In this document: in pieces, positions 42,619 to 54,558 of the stretch
How positions within the stretch are numbered: the first letter of the stretch is position 1
How the letters are laid out: every line of letters starts with the position of its first letter
Assembly: GCA_036847185.1 (NCBI GenBank)
Contig: DAIUAM010000016.1
Span: 993 to 64,992, forward strand
From: Actinomycetota bacterium
GTDB lineage: Bacteria; Actinomycetota; UBA4738
Direction: 5' to 3'
DNA: 64,000 bases
Notes under the pieces: model-generated
Told to the model about the DNA's origin: nothing
Database searches by the model: none
What the model saw: the letters and a program-made list of their open reading frames with translations, nothing else
Made by a program: the position numbers and the translations under genes

Positions 42619-45516
<2,898 letters not shown>

Positions 45517-45517
45517 A

Positions 45518-47146
45518 ATGAGCGCCGCCGTGGTCCAGACCCGATCGATCCTCGCGAGGCACTGGCGGGCGTTCGCCGCCCTGGTTGCGGCCACCATCGC
45601 CGGTGCCGCCTGCGCGCCGGGCGGGAGCCCGCCCAGCTTCCCGGTGGTCGCCGCCACCGGCCTTCGCGTCCAGGTCGTCGATTCGCTGTACGACGCAGGC
45701 CGCTCCCCGTCGGTCGCGTTGGACAAGAACGGCAACCCGGAGGTCGCCTACCTCCTGTACCAGCCGGTCCTGAAGAAGGGGGATCTGCCCCCGCCGATCG
45801 TGGGCGGCGCGCCGCAACCCCCGTCCGTGATGCAAGCGGCGTATTCCGGCGGGACCTGGACCCGGGTGCCCGCCAGCGGCGGCGTCTCGCTCGGGCAGTC
45901 GGAGGCCGGCAAGGCGACGGCGATCGCGAACAAGGACGGCCAGGCCATCCCGGGGGTCAACGACGCCATGACCCTGGACGCGGCCGGAAAGCACCACATC
46001 GTGTGGGCCACCCCGTCCGGGCTCTTCTACACCGACGACTCCAACGGGACCTACGGGAGCCCGACGAAGATCAGCTCCGCACAGACGTTCGGGGCGTCCA
46101 TCGCGGTGGCCCCCGACGGTACTTCGTGGATCGCCTACTACGAAGGGTCGACCGTCAAGGTGGCAAGCGGCTCGGGCAGCACGTTCACGGAAGAGCAGGT
46201 CGCCACGACCAGCGGCGCGCCGGGAGCCACCGCGGGCGTGACGGCCATCGGAGCAGGGTCGAGCGGCCCGCAGGTCGCGTACGGCGACAACGGCACGACG
46301 GTGGTTGCCTCGAAGGTCGGGAACGCCTGGACGCCGACGCCGATCACGGGACCCGGCGGCTACGGTCTGTCGATGGCCCTCGACAAGAGCGGGAATCCGA
46401 ACCTCGCTTACTACGACCAGTCCGGCAACGTCTACGAGGTCGGATTGAACGGGGGAGGCCAGACGAAGCTGGCCACCGTGGAGCCGGCGAAGGGTACGAC
46501 GGGCCCTTCGGCGGGCTGGTCGACCGGGATCGCGGTCGATGGCTCCGGGGTCGACTACGTCGCCTGGTCCGACATCGGGCGAGGACTGGTCTACGTGGCG
46601 ACGAACGGGAGCGGCTCGTTCCAGACCCACCCCGTCCAGGGGAGCTTCGGCGGCCTCAACCCCTCGATCGCGGTCTCGGCCGACGCGCAGCACCTGGCGG
46701 TGGCGTGGTACGACGGGCCGGACGGCGACCTCGACATCGCGACGCCGCCGGCCGGCAGCCTCGCCCTGGCCTTCTCGCCCGCCCCCGTGGTCCTGCCGTC
46801 GGCGGGCCCGACCGCCCCACAGTGCTCGCCCGGCAGCTCGACCGACCTCTCCATCGCCGCCCCGGTCGGCGCCGCCGCCAAGGGATTCGACACGACCTGC
46901 CTCGCGGTCGCGGCCGGGAAGACGTTCACGGTGACCTTCGCGAACGACGACACCGGCGTGCCGCACGACTGGGCGCTCTTCGCGAACTCCGCCGCCACGA
47001 GCCCGATCGGCGGGGCCACCAGCCCGACCCCGGTCAGTCCGGGCAGCTCGCAGAAATACTCGCTGACGGCCCTGAAGGCAGGCACGTACTTCTACCACTG
47101 CGACTTCCACCAGACCACGATGACCGGCACGCTCGTCGTGAAGTAA
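45518..47146 (+). CDS. lipoprotein with 7-bladed-propeller-like domain and C-terminal type-1-copper cupredoxin domain
   Basis: Lipobox-like IAGAAC. Seven ~40-aa repeats ([DG].G.P.[VL]A[YW]...G..Y). C-terminal GVPHDW...YFYHCDFHQTTMTG carries H, C, H, M type 1 Cu ligands. Starts 1 nt after the uvrA stop. Confidence 0.7.
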   Translation: MSAAVVQTRSILARHWRAFAALVAATIAGAACAPGGSPPSFPVVAATGLRVQVVDSLYDAGRSPSVALDKNGNPEVAYLLYQPVLKKGDLPPPIVGGAPQPPSVMQAAYSGGTWTRVPASGGVSLGQSEAGKATAIANKDGQAIPGVNDAMTLDAAGKHHIVWATPSGLFYTDDSNGTYGSPTKISSAQTFGASIAVAPDGTSWIAYYEGSTVKVASGSGSTFTEEQVATTSGAPGATAGVTAIGAGSSGPQVAYGDNGTTVVASKVGNAWTPTPITGPGGYGLSMALDKSGNPNLAYYDQSGNVYEVGLNGGGQTKLATVEPAKGTTGPSAGWSTGIAVDGSGVDYVAWSDIGRGLVYVATNGSGSFQTHPVQGSFGGLNPSIAVSADAQHLAVAWYDGPDGDLDIATPPAGSLALAFSPAPVVLPSAGPTAPQCSPGSSTDLSIAAPVGAAAKGFDTTCLAVAAGKTFTVTFANDDTGVPHDWALFANSAATSPIGGATSPTPVSPGSSQKYSLTALKAGTYFYHCDFHQTTMTGTLVVK

Positions 47147-47164
47147 CCGGCTCGCGGGCCGCTC

Positions 47165-47641
47165 CTACCCTCGCGTCCCTACCGGATTCCGCCCCGGCCC
47201 GGCCGGGCCGGCAAGCTGCGTGAGGTCCCGCCCCGAGACGAGCGCCTCCGCAACGGTCGCCGTGTCCAACGACGACCGAAGGGCCTGGGCCGCCTCGAAC
47301 CAGGCCGGATGCACCGGGCACGGATCGTCGGGACGGCAGGTGGTGCCGCGCAGGGTGCATCGCTGGGGGAGAAGGGCCCCCTCAGAGGCTTCCACGACCT
47401 CGAGCAAGGTGATCTCCGACGGTGGGCGGGCCAGGCGGTATCCCCCCTCCCGCCCCGCTCGCGCTTCGACCAGGCCGGCTCGAACCGTGTCCCCGAGGAC
47501 CTGTGGCGTGTAGCTCACGGGGATGGACATCGAGCCCGAGATCTCCCGGATCTTGCGGTACGAACCGTCCCCCCAGGCCTCCCCCAGGTAGAGGATCGCC
47601 CGCACCGCGTAGTCCGCACGTCTCGAAAGTTGCAGGTCCAT
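47165..47641 (-). CDS. Rrf2-family transcriptional regulator (NsrR/IscR-like, Cys-x6-Cys-x5-Cys-x2-His cluster ligands)
   Basis: N-terminal wHTH (LSRRADYAVRAILYL). CTLRGTTCRPDDPCPVH cluster-binding motif. Divergent from nirK. Confidence 0.8.
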   Translation of the reverse strand: MDLQLSRRADYAVRAILYLGEAWGDGSYRKIREISGSMSIPVSYTPQVLGDTVRAGLVEARAGREGGYRLARPPSEITLLEVVEASEGALLPQRCTLRGTTCRPDDPCPVHPAWFEAAQALRSSLDTATVAEALVSGRDLTQLAGPAGPGRNPVGTRG

Positions 47642-47677
47642 CGGCCCGATCATACCCCTCGTTCAGTCTCTAGCCTA

Positions 47678-47700
47678 ACGTGTAGGAGTAAGCTACACGT
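47678..47700. promoter_or_regulatory. perfect inverted repeat ACGTGTAG-N7-CTACACGT in the rrf2/nirK divergent intergenic region (candidate Rrf2 operator)
   Basis: Read directly from the sequence. ~40 bp upstream of both the nirK ATG (47741) and the rrf2 start (47641). Confidence 0.5.
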
Positions 47701-47740
47701 GTTGGAGTCGAGGAGCACGCGGTCGGAAAGAGAGGTCCGG

Positions 47741-49222
47741 ATGGATGCGAACAGGAGCGAACGAGGCAACGCTGGGATCGCGGTCCTTGTGGTGCTGTCC
47801 CTGACGGCCCTGGGGGTCGGGACGGCCGGCGTGGTCCGCGGCGGGGCGCGGTCCTCGCGAGCGGTCCAGGCTGCTTCCGTGCCCTACCTGATGGCGGGGA
47901 GCGGCACCGGCCACGTGGTGAGCGTCGACCTGACGGCGAACGACACGACCATCCAGGAGATCGCTCCCGGCGTGAAGTTCAACGCCTGGACCTTCAACGG
48001 CACCGCACCGGGTCCCGTGATCCGCGTCCAGCAGGGCGACACCGTGCAGTTCACCCTCCACAACGCGTCGAAGAACATGTCCCATTCGATCGACTTCCAC
48101 GCCGCGCAGACGCCGTGGGACGTGAACTATCAGGCGGTGGCGCCTGGCAAGGTCTTCACCTTCAGTTGGGTGGCTCGGTTCCCGGGCGTGTTCATGTACC
48201 ACTGCGGGACCCCGCCGGTCATCCAGCACATCTCGAACGGGATGTACGGCGCGATCGTCGTCGAGCCCGCCCACACGCTCGCCCCGGCCCGCGAATACGT
48301 CTTGGTGCAGAGCGAGTTCTACCCTTCGGCCCAGCCGACGGGCGGCGTTTACTACGGCGACTACAACGCGATGCTGGCCAACCAGCCCCAGTACATCGTG
48401 TTCAACGGAGAGGCCAACCAGTTCAAGGACCACCCCTTGGTCGCCAGGCCGGGGGAGCTGATCCGGCTCTGGGTGGTGGACGCCGGCCCCAGCCACTGGT
48501 CGGCCTTCCACGTGATCGGCGCGCTGTTCGACAGCGCGTACGCGAGCGGGAACCCGGCGAACGCCGTGCACGGCGTGCAGACCGTAACCATCGCTCCCGG
48601 TGACGGGTGGATGATGGAGCTCCGGATCCCCGACGCCGGGCTGTATCCGTTCGTCACGCACTCCTTCGCCGATGCGGGGAGGGGGGCGCTGGGGATCATC
48701 AAGGTGGACCCGAAGGCGCCTGCGGCTCCGAAGTCGTACCCGACGATGGGCGACCCGATGACGGCCGGGGTGACGGCTGATACCGCGACCGGGACCACCG
48801 GCCCGAGCACCGGCGGCACCGGGATGGCCGGTATGCCCATGCCTTCGCCGGCGGCCGGCGGGACGTCTTCGCCTCCCGGTGCGGCCTCGTGCATGCCGAT
48901 GGGAACGAAGCTCGAGATCACCGCACCGGCCGGGGCGAGCACGTCGGGGTTCGACAAGACGTGCCTGGCCGCCCCCGCCGGGTTGACGTTCACCGTGACC
49001 TTCAAGAACCTGGACACGGGCATCCCGCACAACTTCGCGATCTACTCGGACTCGAACGCCACCACGTGGCTGGGCGGGGCGGAGAGCGCGGCGAAGATCG
49101 TGATGGGACCGGGGAGCGTCACCTACACGATCAAAGGGCTGCCTGCCGGCCAGTACTTCTTCCGGTGCGACATCCACCCCCAGACCATGAAGGGCGTGTT
49201 CATAGTCGCGGGCGGCCACTGA
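47741..49222 (+). CDS. nirK: copper-containing nitrite reductase (NirK) with Met-rich linker and extra C-terminal cupredoxin domain
   Basis: Signal/TM N-terminus. HNASKNMSHSIDFHAA (T1/T2 Cu His). MYHCGTPPVIQHISNGMYG (His-Cys...His...Met spacing identical to NirK). A MxxM-rich linker follows, then a second cupredoxin (GIPHNF...YFFRCDIHPQTMKG). Good SD (AAGAGAGG). Confidence 0.85.
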   Translation: MDANRSERGNAGIAVLVVLSLTALGVGTAGVVRGGARSSRAVQAASVPYLMAGSGTGHVVSVDLTANDTTIQEIAPGVKFNAWTFNGTAPGPVIRVQQGDTVQFTLHNASKNMSHSIDFHAAQTPWDVNYQAVAPGKVFTFSWVARFPGVFMYHCGTPPVIQHISNGMYGAIVVEPAHTLAPAREYVLVQSEFYPSAQPTGGVYYGDYNAMLANQPQYIVFNGEANQFKDHPLVARPGELIRLWVVDAGPSHWSAFHVIGALFDSAYASGNPANAVHGVQTVTIAPGDGWMMELRIPDAGLYPFVTHSFADAGRGALGIIKVDPKAPAAPKSYPTMGDPMTAGVTADTATGTTGPSTGGTGMAGMPMPSPAAGGTSSPPGAASCMPMGTKLEITAPAGASTSGFDKTCLAAPAGLTFTVTFKNLDTGIPHNFAIYSDSNATTWLGGAESAAKIVMGPGSVTYTIKGLPAGQYFFRCDIHPQTMKGVFIVAGGH

Positions 49223-49318
49223 CCGGACGGCACGCGGGCGGGGAGGGTTTGCGGAAAGACAGAACCTCCCCGTCCGCTTGCGGGGTGGGGCCCCGGCTCG
49301 CTCCTACAATGGTCTAGC

Positions 49319-51226
49319 GTGAGCGTCCGACGGCCGGAACCGTCCTCCATCCCCGACGAGCCGGGCGCGTACCTCTTCCGGGACTCCGACGGTCGCGTCG
49401 TCTACGTGGGGAAGGCGATCTCCCTCCGCAAACGGCTCGCTTCGTACTGGAGCCGCCCGCTGCATCCGCGCACCGAGGCGATGGTCGAGCACGCCGTCAC
49501 GGTCGACTGGATCCTGGCGAAGAACGAGGTCGACGCGCTGATGCTCGAGTACAACCTCATCAAGTCGCACCGGCCACGGTTCAACATCCGCTACCGCGAC
49601 GACAAGTCGTACCCGTACCTCGCGCTGACCGTGGGGGAGCGTTGGCCCCGGGCCAGGGTGATGCGGGGACCCAAGCGCAAAGGGGTCCGGTACTTCGGGC
49701 CGTACGGCCACGCCTACGCGATCCGGGAGACCCTCGACGCGCTGACCCGGGTCTTTCCTGTTCGAACGTGCAGCGACGGGTTCTTCGACCAGCGGGCCCG
49801 GGCGGGACGGCCATGCCTCTACTACGACATCGGGCGATGCGCCGGCCCGTGCGTGCCGGCATCGACCGGGGTCACCGAGGCGAGCTACCGCGAACAGGTC
49901 GACGCGCTGTCCGACTTCCTGGCCGGGCGACACAAGCCGATCCTGTCTCGCCTCGACGTGGAGATGCGGGGCGCCGCCGAGTCGCTCGAGTTCGAACGCG
50001 CCGCCAAGCTCCGGGACCAGCTCGCCGCCGCCCGCAAGGCGATCGAGAGCCAGGAGATGGTGCTCTCCCGCCGGGAGGACCTCGACGTCATCGGGATCGA
50101 AGAGGACGACCTCGAAGCCGCGTTGCAGGTGTTCTTCGTCCGGGGCGGCCGGGTGATGGGCCGGCGCGGGTGGGTGGTCGACAAGGTGGAGGACATCCAG
50201 CTCCCTGGGCTGATCTCGTCGTTCGTGCGCGAGCTGTACATGGAGCGCGAAGAGGTCCCCCGGCGCGTGCTGGTGCCGGTCCTTCCCGAGGAGCAGGAGC
50301 TGCTCGAGGAGTGGCTGTCCCGGGTCCGGGGCTCCCGCGTTCAGATCTCCGTCCCGGCCCGTGGCGACGGCCGCCGCCTGCTCCAGACGGTCACCCAGAA
50401 CGCGAAGGAAGCCTTCGTCCGCCACAAGCTGAAGCGGTCGTCGGACTTCGCTGCGCGGTCACGGGCGCTGCAGGAGCTGGGCGACGCTCTCGGCCTGCCG
50501 AACGGCCCGCTGCGCATCGAGTGCTACGACATCTCCAACCTCGGCCCGACGGACAAGGTCGCCTCGATGGTCGTGTTCGAGGACGGCCTGCCGAAGCGCA
50601 GCGATTACCGAAAGTTCGCCATCAAGAGCGTGCCGGGACAAGACGACTTTGCAAGCATGGAGGAAGTGCTCCGACGACGCCTGGCCCGCCTGCGCAGCGA
50701 AGGGGAACCGGCCGGCCCGGCCGGCCCAGAAGAAGAGACGCCCCGGCGGCGGCGGCGGTTCGCGTACTTCCCGTCGCTCATCGTGGTGGACGGAGGACGC
50801 GGGCAGCTCTCGGTGGCCGAACGGGTGCTGGCCGACTTCGGGCTCGCCATCCCTGTGGTCGGGCTCGCCAAGCGGCTGGAGGAGGTCTACCTCCCCGGCC
50901 AACCCCAACCCCTGCAGATCCCTCGCGGGTCGGAGGCGCTGTTCGTGCTCCAGCACATCCGGGACGAGGCGCACCGGTTCGCCATCACCTTCCACCGGCA
51001 GAAGCGGCAGAAACGCGCGCTCAGGTCCGTCCTGGACGATATCCCCGGCGTGGGCCCGTCGCGGAAGAAGGCCCTGCTCCGGCGATTCGGGTCGGTGGCG
51101 CGGCTGCGGACCGCCTCGTCAGAGGAGATCGACGGCACCCCGGGGGTGGGCCGATCCCTGGCCGGGGTGATCCATGAGCACCTCCATCGCGTAGAAGCAG
51201 TGACGGACGTACGGAGGGTGGGATGA
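49319..51226 (+). CDS. uvrC: excinuclease ABC subunit C
   Basis: GIY-YIG N-terminus (PGAYLFRDSDGRVVYVGKA), UvrBC-interaction region and a C-terminal HhH. Confidence 0.93.
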   Translation: MSVRRPEPSSIPDEPGAYLFRDSDGRVVYVGKAISLRKRLASYWSRPLHPRTEAMVEHAVTVDWILAKNEVDALMLEYNLIKSHRPRFNIRYRDDKSYPYLALTVGERWPRARVMRGPKRKGVRYFGPYGHAYAIRETLDALTRVFPVRTCSDGFFDQRARAGRPCLYYDIGRCAGPCVPASTGVTEASYREQVDALSDFLAGRHKPILSRLDVEMRGAAESLEFERAAKLRDQLAAARKAIESQEMVLSRREDLDVIGIEEDDLEAALQVFFVRGGRVMGRRGWVVDKVEDIQLPGLISSFVRELYMEREEVPRRVLVPVLPEEQELLEEWLSRVRGSRVQISVPARGDGRRLLQTVTQNAKEAFVRHKLKRSSDFAARSRALQELGDALGLPNGPLRIECYDISNLGPTDKVASMVVFEDGLPKRSDYRKFAIKSVPGQDDFASMEEVLRRRLARLRSEGEPAGPAGPEEETPRRRRRFAYFPSLIVVDGGRGQLSVAERVLADFGLAIPVVGLAKRLEEVYLPGQPQPLQIPRGSEALFVLQHIRDEAHRFAITFHRQKRQKRALRSVLDDIPGVGPSRKKALLRRFGSVARLRTASSEEIDGTPGVGRSLAGVIHEHLHRVEAVTDVRRVG

Positions 51227-54558
<3,332 letters not shown>

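Follow-up and report, generated by a model that had tools for sequence, protein, structure and literature searches.

Nitrite reductases that carry a tethered redox partner serve as models for the study of electron transfer between proteins. By the estimate of one review, such extended enzymes occur in about 30% of nirK denitrifiers (PMC13324648). A single NirK with a C-terminal cupredoxin has been solved, TsNirK of Thermus scotoductus SA-01 (PDB 6HBE; Opperman et al. 2019, PMC6400189), so the three-domain architecture to which an earlier note on the DNA studied here drew attention is not itself new. That paper places the copper of the appended cupredoxin, T1CuC, 14.1 Å from the type-1 copper of the core, T1CuN, and proposes a T1CuC → T1CuN → T2Cu route. 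A dangling cupredoxin is also found in Nmar_1354 (MCO4) of Nitrosopumilus maritimus (9CCK), where it lies 13.5 Å from the core T1 copper (PMC11761707). A different kind of appendage is seen in CueO, whose Met-rich domain recruits Cu(I) (PMC11494321). The core of TsNirK is atypical, with Gln and Ser at two characteristic positions, and the gene analyzed here combines the same domain order with a canonical core.

The gene, its NirK core and its predicted membrane anchor

Within the window, the 64,000-nucleotide stretch of actinomycete DNA that was analyzed, a nirK-type gene (47741..49222, + strand) encodes a 493-aa protein consisting of an anchor, a predicted two-domain Cu nitrite reductase core, a tether and a C-terminal cupredoxin. 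The ORF is uninterrupted from ATG 47741 to the stop codon at 49220-49222. GC3 in its frame is 0.84-0.95 across the core, the linker and the cupredoxin, and the remaining two forward frames contain stop codons within the linker region. A Shine-Dalgarno-like GAGAGG lies 5 nt upstream of ATG 47741. For a 99%-identical protein (P0001), NCBI sets the start 14 codons earlier, at the position equivalent to GTG 47699; ATG 47741 is the more likely start of the gene because this GTG falls within a conserved operator-like palindrome. A 637-aa ORF beginning at 47309 was rejected as the gene: it is a mechanical upstream extension that overlaps the opposite-strand Rrf2 gene.

The earlier note had described a canonical NirK core followed by a Met-rich linker and a complete cupredoxin, and this three-domain layout is borne out: all parts reside in the single ORF, with complete sets of ligands. 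Every motif that it quoted (HNASKNMSHSIDFH, YHCGTPPVIQHISNGMYG, MGDPM, GMAGMPMPSP, SCMPMG, GIPHNF and YFFRCDIHPQTMKG) is present. The length that it gave for the extension, about 140 aa, was too short: 170 aa follow the end of the core at residue 323, made up of a 66-aa linker (residues 324-389) and then about 105 aa of cupredoxin.

The core (residues 55-323; 47903..48709, + strand) has all T1, T2 and catalytic residues in place. The T1CuN ligands H115/C155/H163/M168 align with Geobacillus NirK motifs and are kept in 120-121/121 sequences (the axial M168 in 120/121); the T2Cu ligands H120/H154/H307, with H154 adjoining C155, are invariant in 121/121, as are AspCAT D118 (in HSIDFH) and HisCAT H257 (in AFHVIG). 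The Geobacillus motifs HSMDFH, YHCGT..QHI.NGM, FHV.G and VTH are all matched. The best PDB sequence matches of the core are the experimentally studied Geobacillus NirKs (E ~1e-65), to which it is nearer than to TsNirK 6hbe (core E 4e-53, in a match across residues 69-487). In Foldseek comparisons, the core superimposes on 3wia, 3wkq and 3x1e with TM 0.85-0.91 and 40-42% identity, and its AF2 pLDDT is mostly >90. The NCBIfam equivalog TIGR02376 scores 190.4 bits over residues 56-323, under its 296.3-bit cut-off; assignment to NirK rests on the ligands, the fold and the closest solved homologues, not on this model, and these three support the prediction that the window protein is a copper nitrite reductase.

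At the N-terminus, residues 11-29 (47771..47827, + strand) form a helix in the AF2 model, with a Kyte-Doolittle 19-residue maximum of 2.25, and are predicted to act as a signal anchor or transmembrane helix. A comparable hydrophobic segment is present in 115/115 aligned homologues, and we infer that the helix anchors NirK to the membrane. A Tat signal and lipoprotein attachment were ruled out, the protein having neither a twin-arginine motif nor a lipobox.

The homologue set comprises 5,866 proteins at E <= 1e-10, and the fused architecture is common to all 120 of those listed. The named sources among the listed homologues are uncultured Actinomycetota, and the full-length relatives found all come from metagenome-assembled genomes.

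We think it probable that the locus encodes a membrane-anchored NirK, which reduces nitrite to NO, with a tethered cupredoxin shuttle and a possible weak Cu(I) cluster, the whole forming part of an Rrf2-controlled mobile unit. In its host, an actinomycete not yet cultured, NirK would sit on the outer side of the cytoplasmic membrane, held there by its N-terminal helix; the actinomycete cell surface is assumed to lack an outer membrane. The core would assemble into the usual NirK trimer, with each T2 copper bound by H120/H154 from one subunit and by H307 from its neighbor; proton supply would fall to D118 and H257, and T1 copper (H115/C155/H163/M168) would reduce T2 by way of the C155-H154 bridge. 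We infer this core chemistry from homology to the Geobacillus NirKs, the residues being read from the sequence.

The linker and its methionine cluster

The linker consists of two parts. Its head (residues 324-350; 48710..48790, + strand) is conserved, with the consensus PxAPxxPxxYPxMxDPFxxGv, in which Y333, P334, D338, P339 and G343 hardly vary; at position 340, 113/115 sequences have Phe, and the window protein has Met. With pLDDT 88-98 in the AF2 model, the head is probably ordered and packs on the core. A P/A/S/G/T-rich tether follows (residues 351-382; 48791..48886, + strand) and holds the Met cluster M362-A-G-M365-P-M367 (nt 48824-48841). The structure prediction that the earlier note had proposed as a check gives a confident core and cupredoxin with the disordered residues 351-382 between them (pLDDT <50). 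The conserved 27-residue segment would run along the core surface and be followed by about 32 disordered residues and the type-1 cupredoxin.

Met accounts for 7/66 linker residues (10.6%) vs 10/427 elsewhere in the protein (2.3%; binomial P = 9e-4), and the window protein, together with P0001, has the highest linker Met fraction of 121 aligned sequences. The earlier note described the linker as unusually rich in MxM/MPM motifs. The enrichment stands, but the linker is not Met-rich throughout: the tether holds a single compact cluster of three Met, with no His, and four further Met are scattered over the linker.

The cluster may have no function of its own: compositional drift or slippage could have produced it in a linker of low complexity that evolves fast and is only a flexible spacer. 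This explanation is somewhat unlikely, if far from idle: the tether is predicted to be disordered and cannot be aligned among homologues except at the cluster, 64/115 homologues have no tether Met at all, the cluster is short and is accompanied by no His or other Cys ligands, and a literature search for a link between Met-rich segments and NirK found none. Against it stands the distribution of Met. Counts in the variable tether of the 115 homologues are bimodal, with no Met in 64, one in 3 and at least two in 48; random placement would give 38.8 singletons instead of the 3 observed. A compact MxM/MxxM cluster occurs in the disordered tether of 48/115 homologues, the spacing is MxM or MxxM in 12/12 tethers with two Met, and the Met span is 0.18 of the tether length vs 0.54 in shuffles. 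Met is encoded by ATG only, and the codons of the linker in the window protein are GC-rich. The motif is scattered over the NirK core tree, and the cluster persists in clades where the flanking linker sequence has been fully replaced. Finally, where the same cupredoxin module occurs in the NB family (see below), none of the 55 linkers in front of it has a Met cluster (P = 1.6e-10). The motif is non-random and specific to NirK and turns up repeatedly in the family; it is so far undescribed, a literature search that paired methionine-rich segments with NirK having returned no record.

Met-rich segments that bind Cu(I) are found in CueO, CopA/PcoA and the Ctr1 "Mets" motifs, where clustered MxM/MxxM lie in a flexible region. 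Cu(I) binding by the tether cluster is plausible on the same pattern. More speculatively, by analogy with the CueO segments, M-x-x-M-x-M could form a weak Cu(I) site that captures copper to load the three copper sites of the enzyme at the cell surface. Such a site would be accessory rather than required, and not essential for catalysis, because the cluster is missing from 58% of homologues. Bolder versions, in which the tether binds Cu(I) next to two type-1 coppers and is a self-metallation device for an enzyme whose three coppers must be loaded at an exposed surface, or in which Cu(I) is itself the electron donor, with cuprous oxidation coupled to nitrite reduction, strike us as quite improbable. 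The latter, if true, would make the protein a cuprous oxidase like CueO, but with nitrite in the place of O2; either would give the tether a new function and, in soil actinomycetes, connect nitrogen-oxide metabolism with copper homeostasis.

The appended cupredoxin and its proposed place in electron transfer

The C-terminal module (residues 383-493; 48887..49219, + strand) was described in the earlier note as a complete plastocyanin/amicyanin-like domain with His, Cys, His and Met ligands, and so it proves. Residues 405-489 match Pfam Cupredoxin_1 (PF13473; 43 bits vs a cut-off of 27) and Copper-bind (PF00127; 38 bits vs 21.2). The T1CuC ligands His430/Cys476/His479/Met483 are kept in 120-121/121 homologues, and the copper loop, H430 ... 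C476-D-I-H479-P-Q-T-M483, follows the type-1 pattern His...Cys-x2-His-x(2-4)-Met. The domain is modeled with pLDDT of about 88-96. C384 and C408 are nearly invariant in the family and probably form a disulfide. In a profile search, the nearest solved protein is auracyanin A (2aan, E 4e-9), with plastocyanin and amicyanin also found; the profile matches TsNirK domain III weakly (E 1.4e-5), and the domain was not found when the PDB was searched by sequence with just the extension.

The cupredoxin would act as a built-in shuttle, carrying electrons from a membrane-bound respiratory donor to T1CuC and on to T1CuN and T2Cu, as proposed for TsNirK, with the long leash letting it move between donor and core. 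By analogy with the solved enzyme, this electron-shuttle role is the most likely one. It agrees with the reading of the extension as a tethered electron donor with which the earlier note had begun, and the TsNirK structure (6HBE) and an unfused pair in Tepidibacillus, in which the gene after nirK encodes a lipoprotein cupredoxin as a separate protein, both fit it.

Alternatively, the tethered cupredoxin may be off the electron path, a separate donor reducing T1CuN directly. There is a precedent in Hyphomicrobium HdNiR, whose extra T1Cu is too distant from the core for electron transfer (PMC13324648, PMC6400189). Tethered NirKs are generally slower than two-domain enzymes, and the tethered domain of RpNiR alters Km and potentials and not simply the speed of electron transfer (PMC13324648). 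The AF2 monomer also positions domain III unlike TsNirK, and a 32-residue disordered leash far exceeds what docking within one molecule needs. Even so, an off-path module appears unlikely: in TsNirK and Nmar_1354, both solved C-terminal-cupredoxin enzymes, the two coppers are within electron-transfer range (14.1 Å and 13.5 Å, respectively; PMC11761707, PMC6400189), the four T1CuC ligands are retained across the family, and the Tepidibacillus pair suggests a functional partnership. Just as doubtful are the purposes that such a module could have: it might stabilize the enzyme, adjust its substrate affinity or reduction potentials, or supply electrons to some other enzyme.

It is very improbable that the protein is a two-domain multicopper oxidase with a pendant cupredoxin that, like Nmar_1354, converts hydroxylamine to nitroxyl. 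Several observations favor it: 9cck_A aligns full-length (473 columns, E 5e-31), the Pfam matches are generic multicopper-oxidase domains, relatives bear the NCBI label "multicopper oxidase domain-containing protein", and TIGR02376 is below its cut-off. The ligand motifs decide against it. Multicopper oxidases have H-C-H and HxH, whereas the core has H-C-G (H154-C155-G156) and H-x-x-D-x-H (H115-S-I-D118-F-H120); with no more than three T2-type His ligands available, a trinuclear center cannot form. Both AspCAT and HisCAT are invariant, and identity is 40-42% to genuine NirKs vs 24% to 9cck. Multicopper oxidase identity was ruled out on these motifs.

That nirK and cupredoxin genes were joined by a sequencing or assembly frameshift, the linker being a second signal peptide, has one parallel in the unfused Tepidibacillus arrangement and is practically negligible, having been ruled out by the continuous frame with its uniformly high GC3 and stops in other frames, a linker with no hydrophobic signal-like segment, and the fusion of 120/120 listed homologues from independent assemblies, one of which holds the 99%-identical copy.

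Genomic setting and comparison with described enzymes

The gene upstream of the Rrf2-nirK pair, NB (45518..47146, + strand), encodes a 542-aa lipoprotein in which a short linker joins a beta-propeller to a cupredoxin (nt 46820-47143; Pfam Cupredoxin_1 at residues 453-541). Its lipobox Cys32 is nearly invariant, its AF2 model has pLDDT 86, and the propeller resembles sialidases and lectins; nearly all of the 66 NB-family homologues have a cupredoxin. The top 20 BLAST matches of the window NirK cupredoxin are all NB-family proteins, and two 4-residue insertions are common to both. The NirK cupredoxin is assigned to the NB type because of this BLAST ranking and the shared insertions, which indicate that the original module was probably swapped for one of the NB family.

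Divergent from nirK is a gene for a 162-aa Rrf2-family regulator (47165..47653, - strand) with a C-x6-C-x5-C motif, scoring over the cut-offs of both Pfam Rrf2 (99 bits) and TIGR00738 (97.6 bits). Its NsrR equivalog score is 42.6 bits vs a cut-off of 182; the nearest solved proteins are IscR-like 4cic and RsrR 6hsd, with NsrR 5n07 at E 1.6e-5 only. The nirK family is usually paired with such a divergent regulator and a conserved palindrome. The Rrf2 gene adjoins nirK in 6/6 sampled metagenome loci and is directly upstream in 19/29 three-domain vs 3/38 two-domain species-representative loci (P = 7e-7; the loci were sorted with 11 cupredoxin module queries). In the window, the intergenic region holds a perfect palindrome, ACGTGTAG-N7-CTACACGT (47678..47700), a candidate Rrf2 operator; the consensus AACGTTTAG-N7-CTAAACGTT scores at least 11/16 in 20/22 divergent Rrf2-nirK intergenic regions, with a shuffled mean of 8.8. 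A divergent Fe-S Rrf2 regulator probably controls nirK via this palindrome, and NO or redox state is its likely signal.

Just past the stop codon and before uvrC lies a 13-bp GC-rich hairpin (49234..49277, + strand), a probable terminator or insulator: RNA folding of 49223-49318 yields -52.8 kcal/mol (z = -2.95 vs shuffles). A simple terminator scan, which returned chance-level matches only, missed the hairpin because it has no U tract; a sigma-70 promoter scan returned no match. In the window, the Rrf2-nirK pair is located between the NB gene and uvrC, and in related genomes (loci L007 and L008) NB lies between uvrA and uvrC without Rrf2-nirK. The pair behaves as a two-gene unit moving between genomic sites. 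No electron donor or other denitrification gene was found within ~25 kb of nirK, which could serve in respiration, detoxification or NO signaling.

The family is large. Its hosts are Actinomycetota of soil and groundwater that have yet to be cultured, and little is known of how much they contribute to NO and N2O fluxes. Three leads emerge: a statistically supported short Met motif specific to the NirK tether, cupredoxin modules exchanged between unrelated proteins, and a conserved, genomically mobile Rrf2-operator-nirK unit. They leave the present understanding of a NirK as before.

Among described proteins, the closest solved cores are the clade II two-domain NirKs of Geobacillus thermodenitrificans and G. 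kaustophilus (3WKQ, 3WI9, 3X1E). These share HS[IM]DFH, YHCGT.PV.QHI.NGM, FHV.G and VTH with the window protein and, as is predicted for it, are surface-attached enzymes of Gram-positive bacteria; unlike it, they have neither a C-terminal cupredoxin nor a long tether. RpNiR and PhNiR (3ZIY, 2ZOO) combine, like the window protein, a clade II core that keeps AspCAT/HisCAT with a C-terminal redox partner, but theirs is a heme c cytochrome, the enzymes are periplasmic and Gram-negative, and the RpNiR tether has 36 residues (PMC13324648). A paper on Chloroflexi Nir and a 2016 nirK survey describe N-terminal cupredoxin and C-terminal cytochrome extensions and do not describe the window type.

Nmar_1354 resembles the window protein in having a trimeric core of two cupredoxin domains (a trimer being expected for the window protein), a linker and a pendant T1 cupredoxin; it differs in its trinuclear T2/T3 center, the conversion of hydroxylamine to HNO and an ordered linker of 15 residues, and is 24% identical. 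The auracyanins (2AAN, 6KOL, 1QHQ) have the same His-Cys-His-Met type-1 site as the window module (6kol, E 3.8e-6), yet they are free-standing, membrane-tethered electron carriers with no enzyme fusion. CueO, also of the cupredoxin-fold superfamily, places a flexible Met-rich segment by a T1 copper (PMC11494321, PMC12041951). That segment, which is much larger and Met-richer, covers the T1 site, and cuprous oxidase activity depends on it (PMC11494321, PMC12041951), whereas the window cluster has three Met in a tether and is optional within the family.

TsNirK remains the nearest counterpart in architecture and is the top full-length Foldseek match of the window model (6hbe, E 2e-38, 482 aligned columns). 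In both, a linker along domain I joins the two-domain T1/T2 core to a C-terminal His2-Cys-Met cupredoxin, and there are three coppers per monomer, predicted from the ligands in the window protein; the alignment with a known C-terminal-cupredoxin NirK that the earlier note had suggested runs full-length, with the four T1 ligands conserved in the family. When the monomer AF2 model, with its disordered tether, is superimposed on full-length 6hbe, rmsd is 15.5 Å and TM 0.54-0.63, the position of domain III differing. TsNirK has Gln as the T1CuN axial ligand and Ser in place of AspCAT (PMC6400189), whereas the window family has Met168 and Asp118; because these two residues are retained, the window protein falls outside the TsNirK subgroup of class III despite the shared architecture. 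The linker has 26 ordered residues in TsNirK vs 66 here, about 32 of them disordered and including the Met cluster, and the copper loop is C-x2-H-x2-M vs C-x2-H-x3-M. The C384/C408 pair, the N-terminal anchor and the Rrf2 pairing are features of the window protein or locus with no TsNirK counterpart in the passages of PMC6400189 that were consulted. The differences from TsNirK are thus a canonical AspCAT and axial Met, a longer tether, a Cys pair and pairing with Rrf2 and a palindrome; with its canonical Asp/Met core joined to a C-terminal cupredoxin, the family could serve as the canonical-core counterpart to TsNirK.

An intact three-domain reading frame

The nirK gene is an unbroken frame on the + strand, running from ATG 47741 to a stop codon at 49220-49222 and specifying a 493-aa product that contains every peptide string quoted in the earlier note; the extension past the core, which ends at residue 323, measures 170 aa rather than the ~140 aa claimed there. 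The linker is genuine and not the trace of a frameshift or a separate ORF: GC3 stays at 0.84-0.95 in the nirK frame across the core, linker and cupredoxin, both other forward frames carry stops within the linker, and relatives are fused in the same way. These include a 99%-identical protein (P0001) from an independent NCBI assembly, GCA_002405235.1, and 120/120 homologues among the matches listed. A mechanical ORF list offers a 637-aa frame at 47309-49222, beginning at ATG 47309, whose upstream part overlaps the opposite-strand gene for an Rrf2-family regulator; this extension is an artefact of high GC, not a longer protein. The NCBI call of the 99%-identical protein begins at GTG 47699, and the overlap of this codon with a palindrome at 47678-47700 favours ATG 47741 as the likely true start. 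Directly 3' of the nirK stop, a GC-rich hairpin of 13 bp with no U tract (49234-49277) lies in a region (49223-49318) with a folding energy of -52.8 kcal/mol (z = -2.95) and is a probable terminator between nirK and uvrC.

Pfam places multicopper-oxidase/cupredoxin domains at residues 77-177 and, each over threshold, Cupredoxin_1 and Copper-bind at residues 405-489. The closest solved structures by sequence are Geobacillus NirKs (3WI9, 3WKQ and 3X1E; E about 1e-65), with whose counterparts HSIDFH, YHCGTPPVIQHISNGM, FHVIG and VTH line up. Across 121 aligned family members, the ligands of the core coppers T1CuN (H115, C155, H163, M168) and T2Cu (H120, H154, H307), the catalytic residues AspCAT D118 and HisCAT H257, and the ligands of the cupredoxin copper T1CuC (H430, C476, H479, M483) are all invariant or nearly so. 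The C-terminal domain is thus complete, having all four T1 ligands and Pfam matches above threshold, and the ligands, Pfam and the matches to Geobacillus NirK and to the Thermus scotoductus enzyme TsNirK support the proposed three-domain NirK carrying a tethered cupredoxin. A trinuclear multicopper-oxidase centre is ruled out because H154-C155-G156 replaces H-C-H and HxH pairs are absent.

Built from 115 sequences, an AlphaFold2 model (pLDDT 85.9, pTM 0.70) predicts a helix at residues 11-29, a high-confidence core (~50-323), a well-ordered linker head (324-350, pLDDT 88-98), a disordered stretch (351-382, pLDDT < 50) and a high-confidence cupredoxin (383-490). Because a hydrophobic N-terminal segment is universal (115/115 homologues) and neither a lipobox nor a twin-arginine motif was found in the nirK product, the predicted helix is read as a signal anchor that would keep the enzyme at the external side of the membrane.

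Cysteines and methionines of the tether

The linker consists of a conserved head (consensus PxAPxxPxxYPxMxDPFxxGv), a variable, disordered middle rich in P/A/S/G/T and a conserved tail, C-x-P-x-G-T. The tail cysteine, C384, is present in 113/115 sequences and C408, in the FDxxCL motif of the cupredoxin, in 114/115; a near-invariant pair in a protein located outside the cytoplasm strongly suggests a C384-C408 disulfide.

The reported methionine enrichment is borne out: the linker has 7 Met among its 66 residues vs 10 among the 427 elsewhere (binomial P = 9e-4), and in Met fraction the linkers of the nirK product and P0001 rank highest of the 121 aligned. M336, in the head, is Met in 86/115 sequences, and M362, M365 and M367 form a cluster in the disordered middle. 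Beyond this main cluster, three further residues are lineage-specific Met substitutions: M340 in the head (48758-48760), a position held by Phe in 113/115, and M385 and M387 in the tail (48893-48895 and 48899-48901), at both of which Met falls outside the six commonest residues.

At the family level, Met clustering exceeds chance. The variable middle segments of 115 homologues contain no Met in 64 cases, one in 3 and at least two in 48, where random placement at the observed frequency would leave 27 without Met and 38.8 with a single one. The 12 two-Met tethers all show MxM or MxxM spacing, and the mean Met span is 0.18 of the segment vs 0.54 in shuffles. Met-bearing tethers are dispersed over a neighbour-joining tree of the cores, and the motif (SMSMSMP, MPSMPMP, MGDMPGMG and similar) is retained while the surrounding linker is no longer alignable. 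Homologues of the neighbouring protein NB, described below, serve as a natural control, sharing the same cupredoxin module and a comparable linker in related organisms; since 0/55 of their linkers reach two Met (Fisher P = 1.6e-10), the motif belongs specifically to the tether of NirK. With 58% of homologues lacking it, the motif is optional as well. What is left of the earlier suggestion of a copper-handling linker is this short, statistically supported MxM motif with a putative role. The nearest functional analogue is the Met-rich domain of CueO, which recruits Cu(I) (PMC11494321), and by this analogy Cu(I) binding by the tether cluster is plausible; no literature joining Met-rich segments to NirK was found.

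A probably borrowed cupredoxin and a mobile gene pair

The NB gene (45518-47146, + strand) encodes a 542-aa lipoprotein with a near-invariant lipobox Cys32, a sialidase- or lectin-like beta-propeller, a disordered linker of ~20 residues and a C-terminal type-1 cupredoxin; its homologues, about 66, are mostly annotated as 'plastocyanin' or hypothetical. Two four-residue insertions in the nirK cupredoxin, ITAPAGASTSGFD and WLGGAESAAKIV, occur in 1/115 NirK family members, that of the window, and are typical of the NB family. In BLAST searches with the nirK cupredoxin (48887-49219), the best 20 matches are all NB-family proteins, reaching 137 bits ungapped, and the highest score of an orthologous NirK cupredoxin is 116 bits, in a gapped alignment. 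The cupredoxin of its own neighbour (46820-47143) scores 105 bits vs 137 bits for NB proteins of other genomes. In an exhaustive search, NB-type domains (62% and 60% identity) and small stand-alone cupredoxins rank closest among single-copy representatives, with NirK-type domains behind both at about 54%. Because the insertions are shared with the NB family and the 20 best BLAST matches belong to it, we conclude that the tethered cupredoxin has apparently been replaced by an NB-type module, a domain swap indicated by the indels and the BLAST ranking together. NB itself could act as a redox partner.

With 2,441 representative clusters, 751 of them at E <= 1e-10, the cupredoxin module makes up a large and so far uncharacterised group of surface cupredoxins. 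It is found by itself, repeated 2-4 times in tandem or fused to different proteins. Many representatives (P0187-P0333) are 300-650 aa long with 2-4 tandem copies; others are stand-alone proteins of 105-220 aa.

Divergent from nirK, the Rrf2 gene (47165-47653, - strand) encodes a 162-aa regulator with a C-x6-C-x5-C motif, whose nearest relatives of known structure are IscR-like and RsrR-type proteins, NsrR being more distant. An Rrf2 gene adjoins nirK in 6/6 sampled metagenome loci, the remaining neighbours being unrelated, and one lies directly upstream in 19/29 three-domain loci vs 3/38 two-domain loci (P = 7e-7). Between the Rrf2 and nirK genes, some 40-50 nt 5' of the start of nirK, lies a perfect palindrome, ACGTGTAG-N7-CTACACGT (47678-47700). 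An imperfect version, with consensus AACGTTTAG-N7-CTAAACGTT, recurs in 20/22 divergent intergenic regions (among loci L009-L074) with scores that shuffles seldom reach, and a conserved palindrome is also found in L002, L004, L005 and L006. It is a credible candidate for the Rrf2 operator.

Elsewhere the window carries housekeeping genes (polA, rpsA, coaE, uvrB, uvrA, uvrC, rapZ, gap, pgk, tpi and ABC transporters), and no further denitrification genes were found in it. NB and uvrC flank the Rrf2-nirK pair; because related genomes (L007 and L008, compared with window 42619-53362) keep the order uvrA-NB-uvrC-rapZ-gap-pgk-tpi without this pair, the two-gene unit was inserted there in the window lineage. 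As the same pair is found elsewhere in unrelated contexts, it behaves as a unit moving between genomic sites.

Relation to known tethered nitrite reductases

NirKs with a C-terminal cupredoxin are already established, and the nirK product is a known kind of enzyme; a 2026 paper describes the field likewise and portrays the roles of tethered domains as complex, not simple (PMC13324648). A 2016 survey of nirK described N-terminal cupredoxins for cultured Actinobacteria and C-terminal cytochromes for other organisms, but not the C-terminal-cupredoxin type (PMC4770552). In a scan of species-representative genomes, the full architecture is almost confined to uncultured Actinomycetota MAGs, apart from one Limnocylindrales MAG and short-linker fusions of Nitrososphaerota; the nearest two-domain cores come from Chloroflexota and Rhodanobacter. 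Tepidibacillus infernus (L069, 2866-4556) represents the unfused state, in which the gene for a two-domain NirK lipoprotein precedes a separate one for a 137-aa lipoprotein cupredoxin. A Nitrososphaerota MAG (L075, 2938-4272) encodes a true NirK-cupredoxin fusion that has the canonical AspCAT, a linker which is short and made of Gly/Ser/Thr, and an amicyanin-like C-x2-H-x2-M loop, without the conserved Cys pair. Given this unfused state and this fusion, NirK-cupredoxin fusions have arisen, or spread, in several lineages.

The top full-length Foldseek match of the model is TsNirK (6HBE; E 2e-38 over 482 columns); the docking of the cupredoxin in the monomer model does not match that of TsNirK (rmsd 15.5 Å). 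TsNirK is a homotrimer in which each subunit binds three coppers, with a T1CuC-T1CuN distance of 14.1 Å and a proposed route T1CuC to T1CuN to T2Cu (PMC6400189). Nmar_1354 (9CCK) also has a pendant C-terminal cupredoxin, 13.5 Å from the core T1 site (PMC11761707), but its core is a two-domain multicopper oxidase. The Hyphomicrobium enzyme HdNiR is a precedent for caution in placing a cupredoxin on the electron path. The TsNirK subgroup is marked by a Gln axial ligand and SerCAT, whereas the nirK product has Met and Asp. Because it keeps these residues and its core is nearer to Geobacillus NirK than to TsNirK, the nirK product falls outside the TsNirK subgroup.
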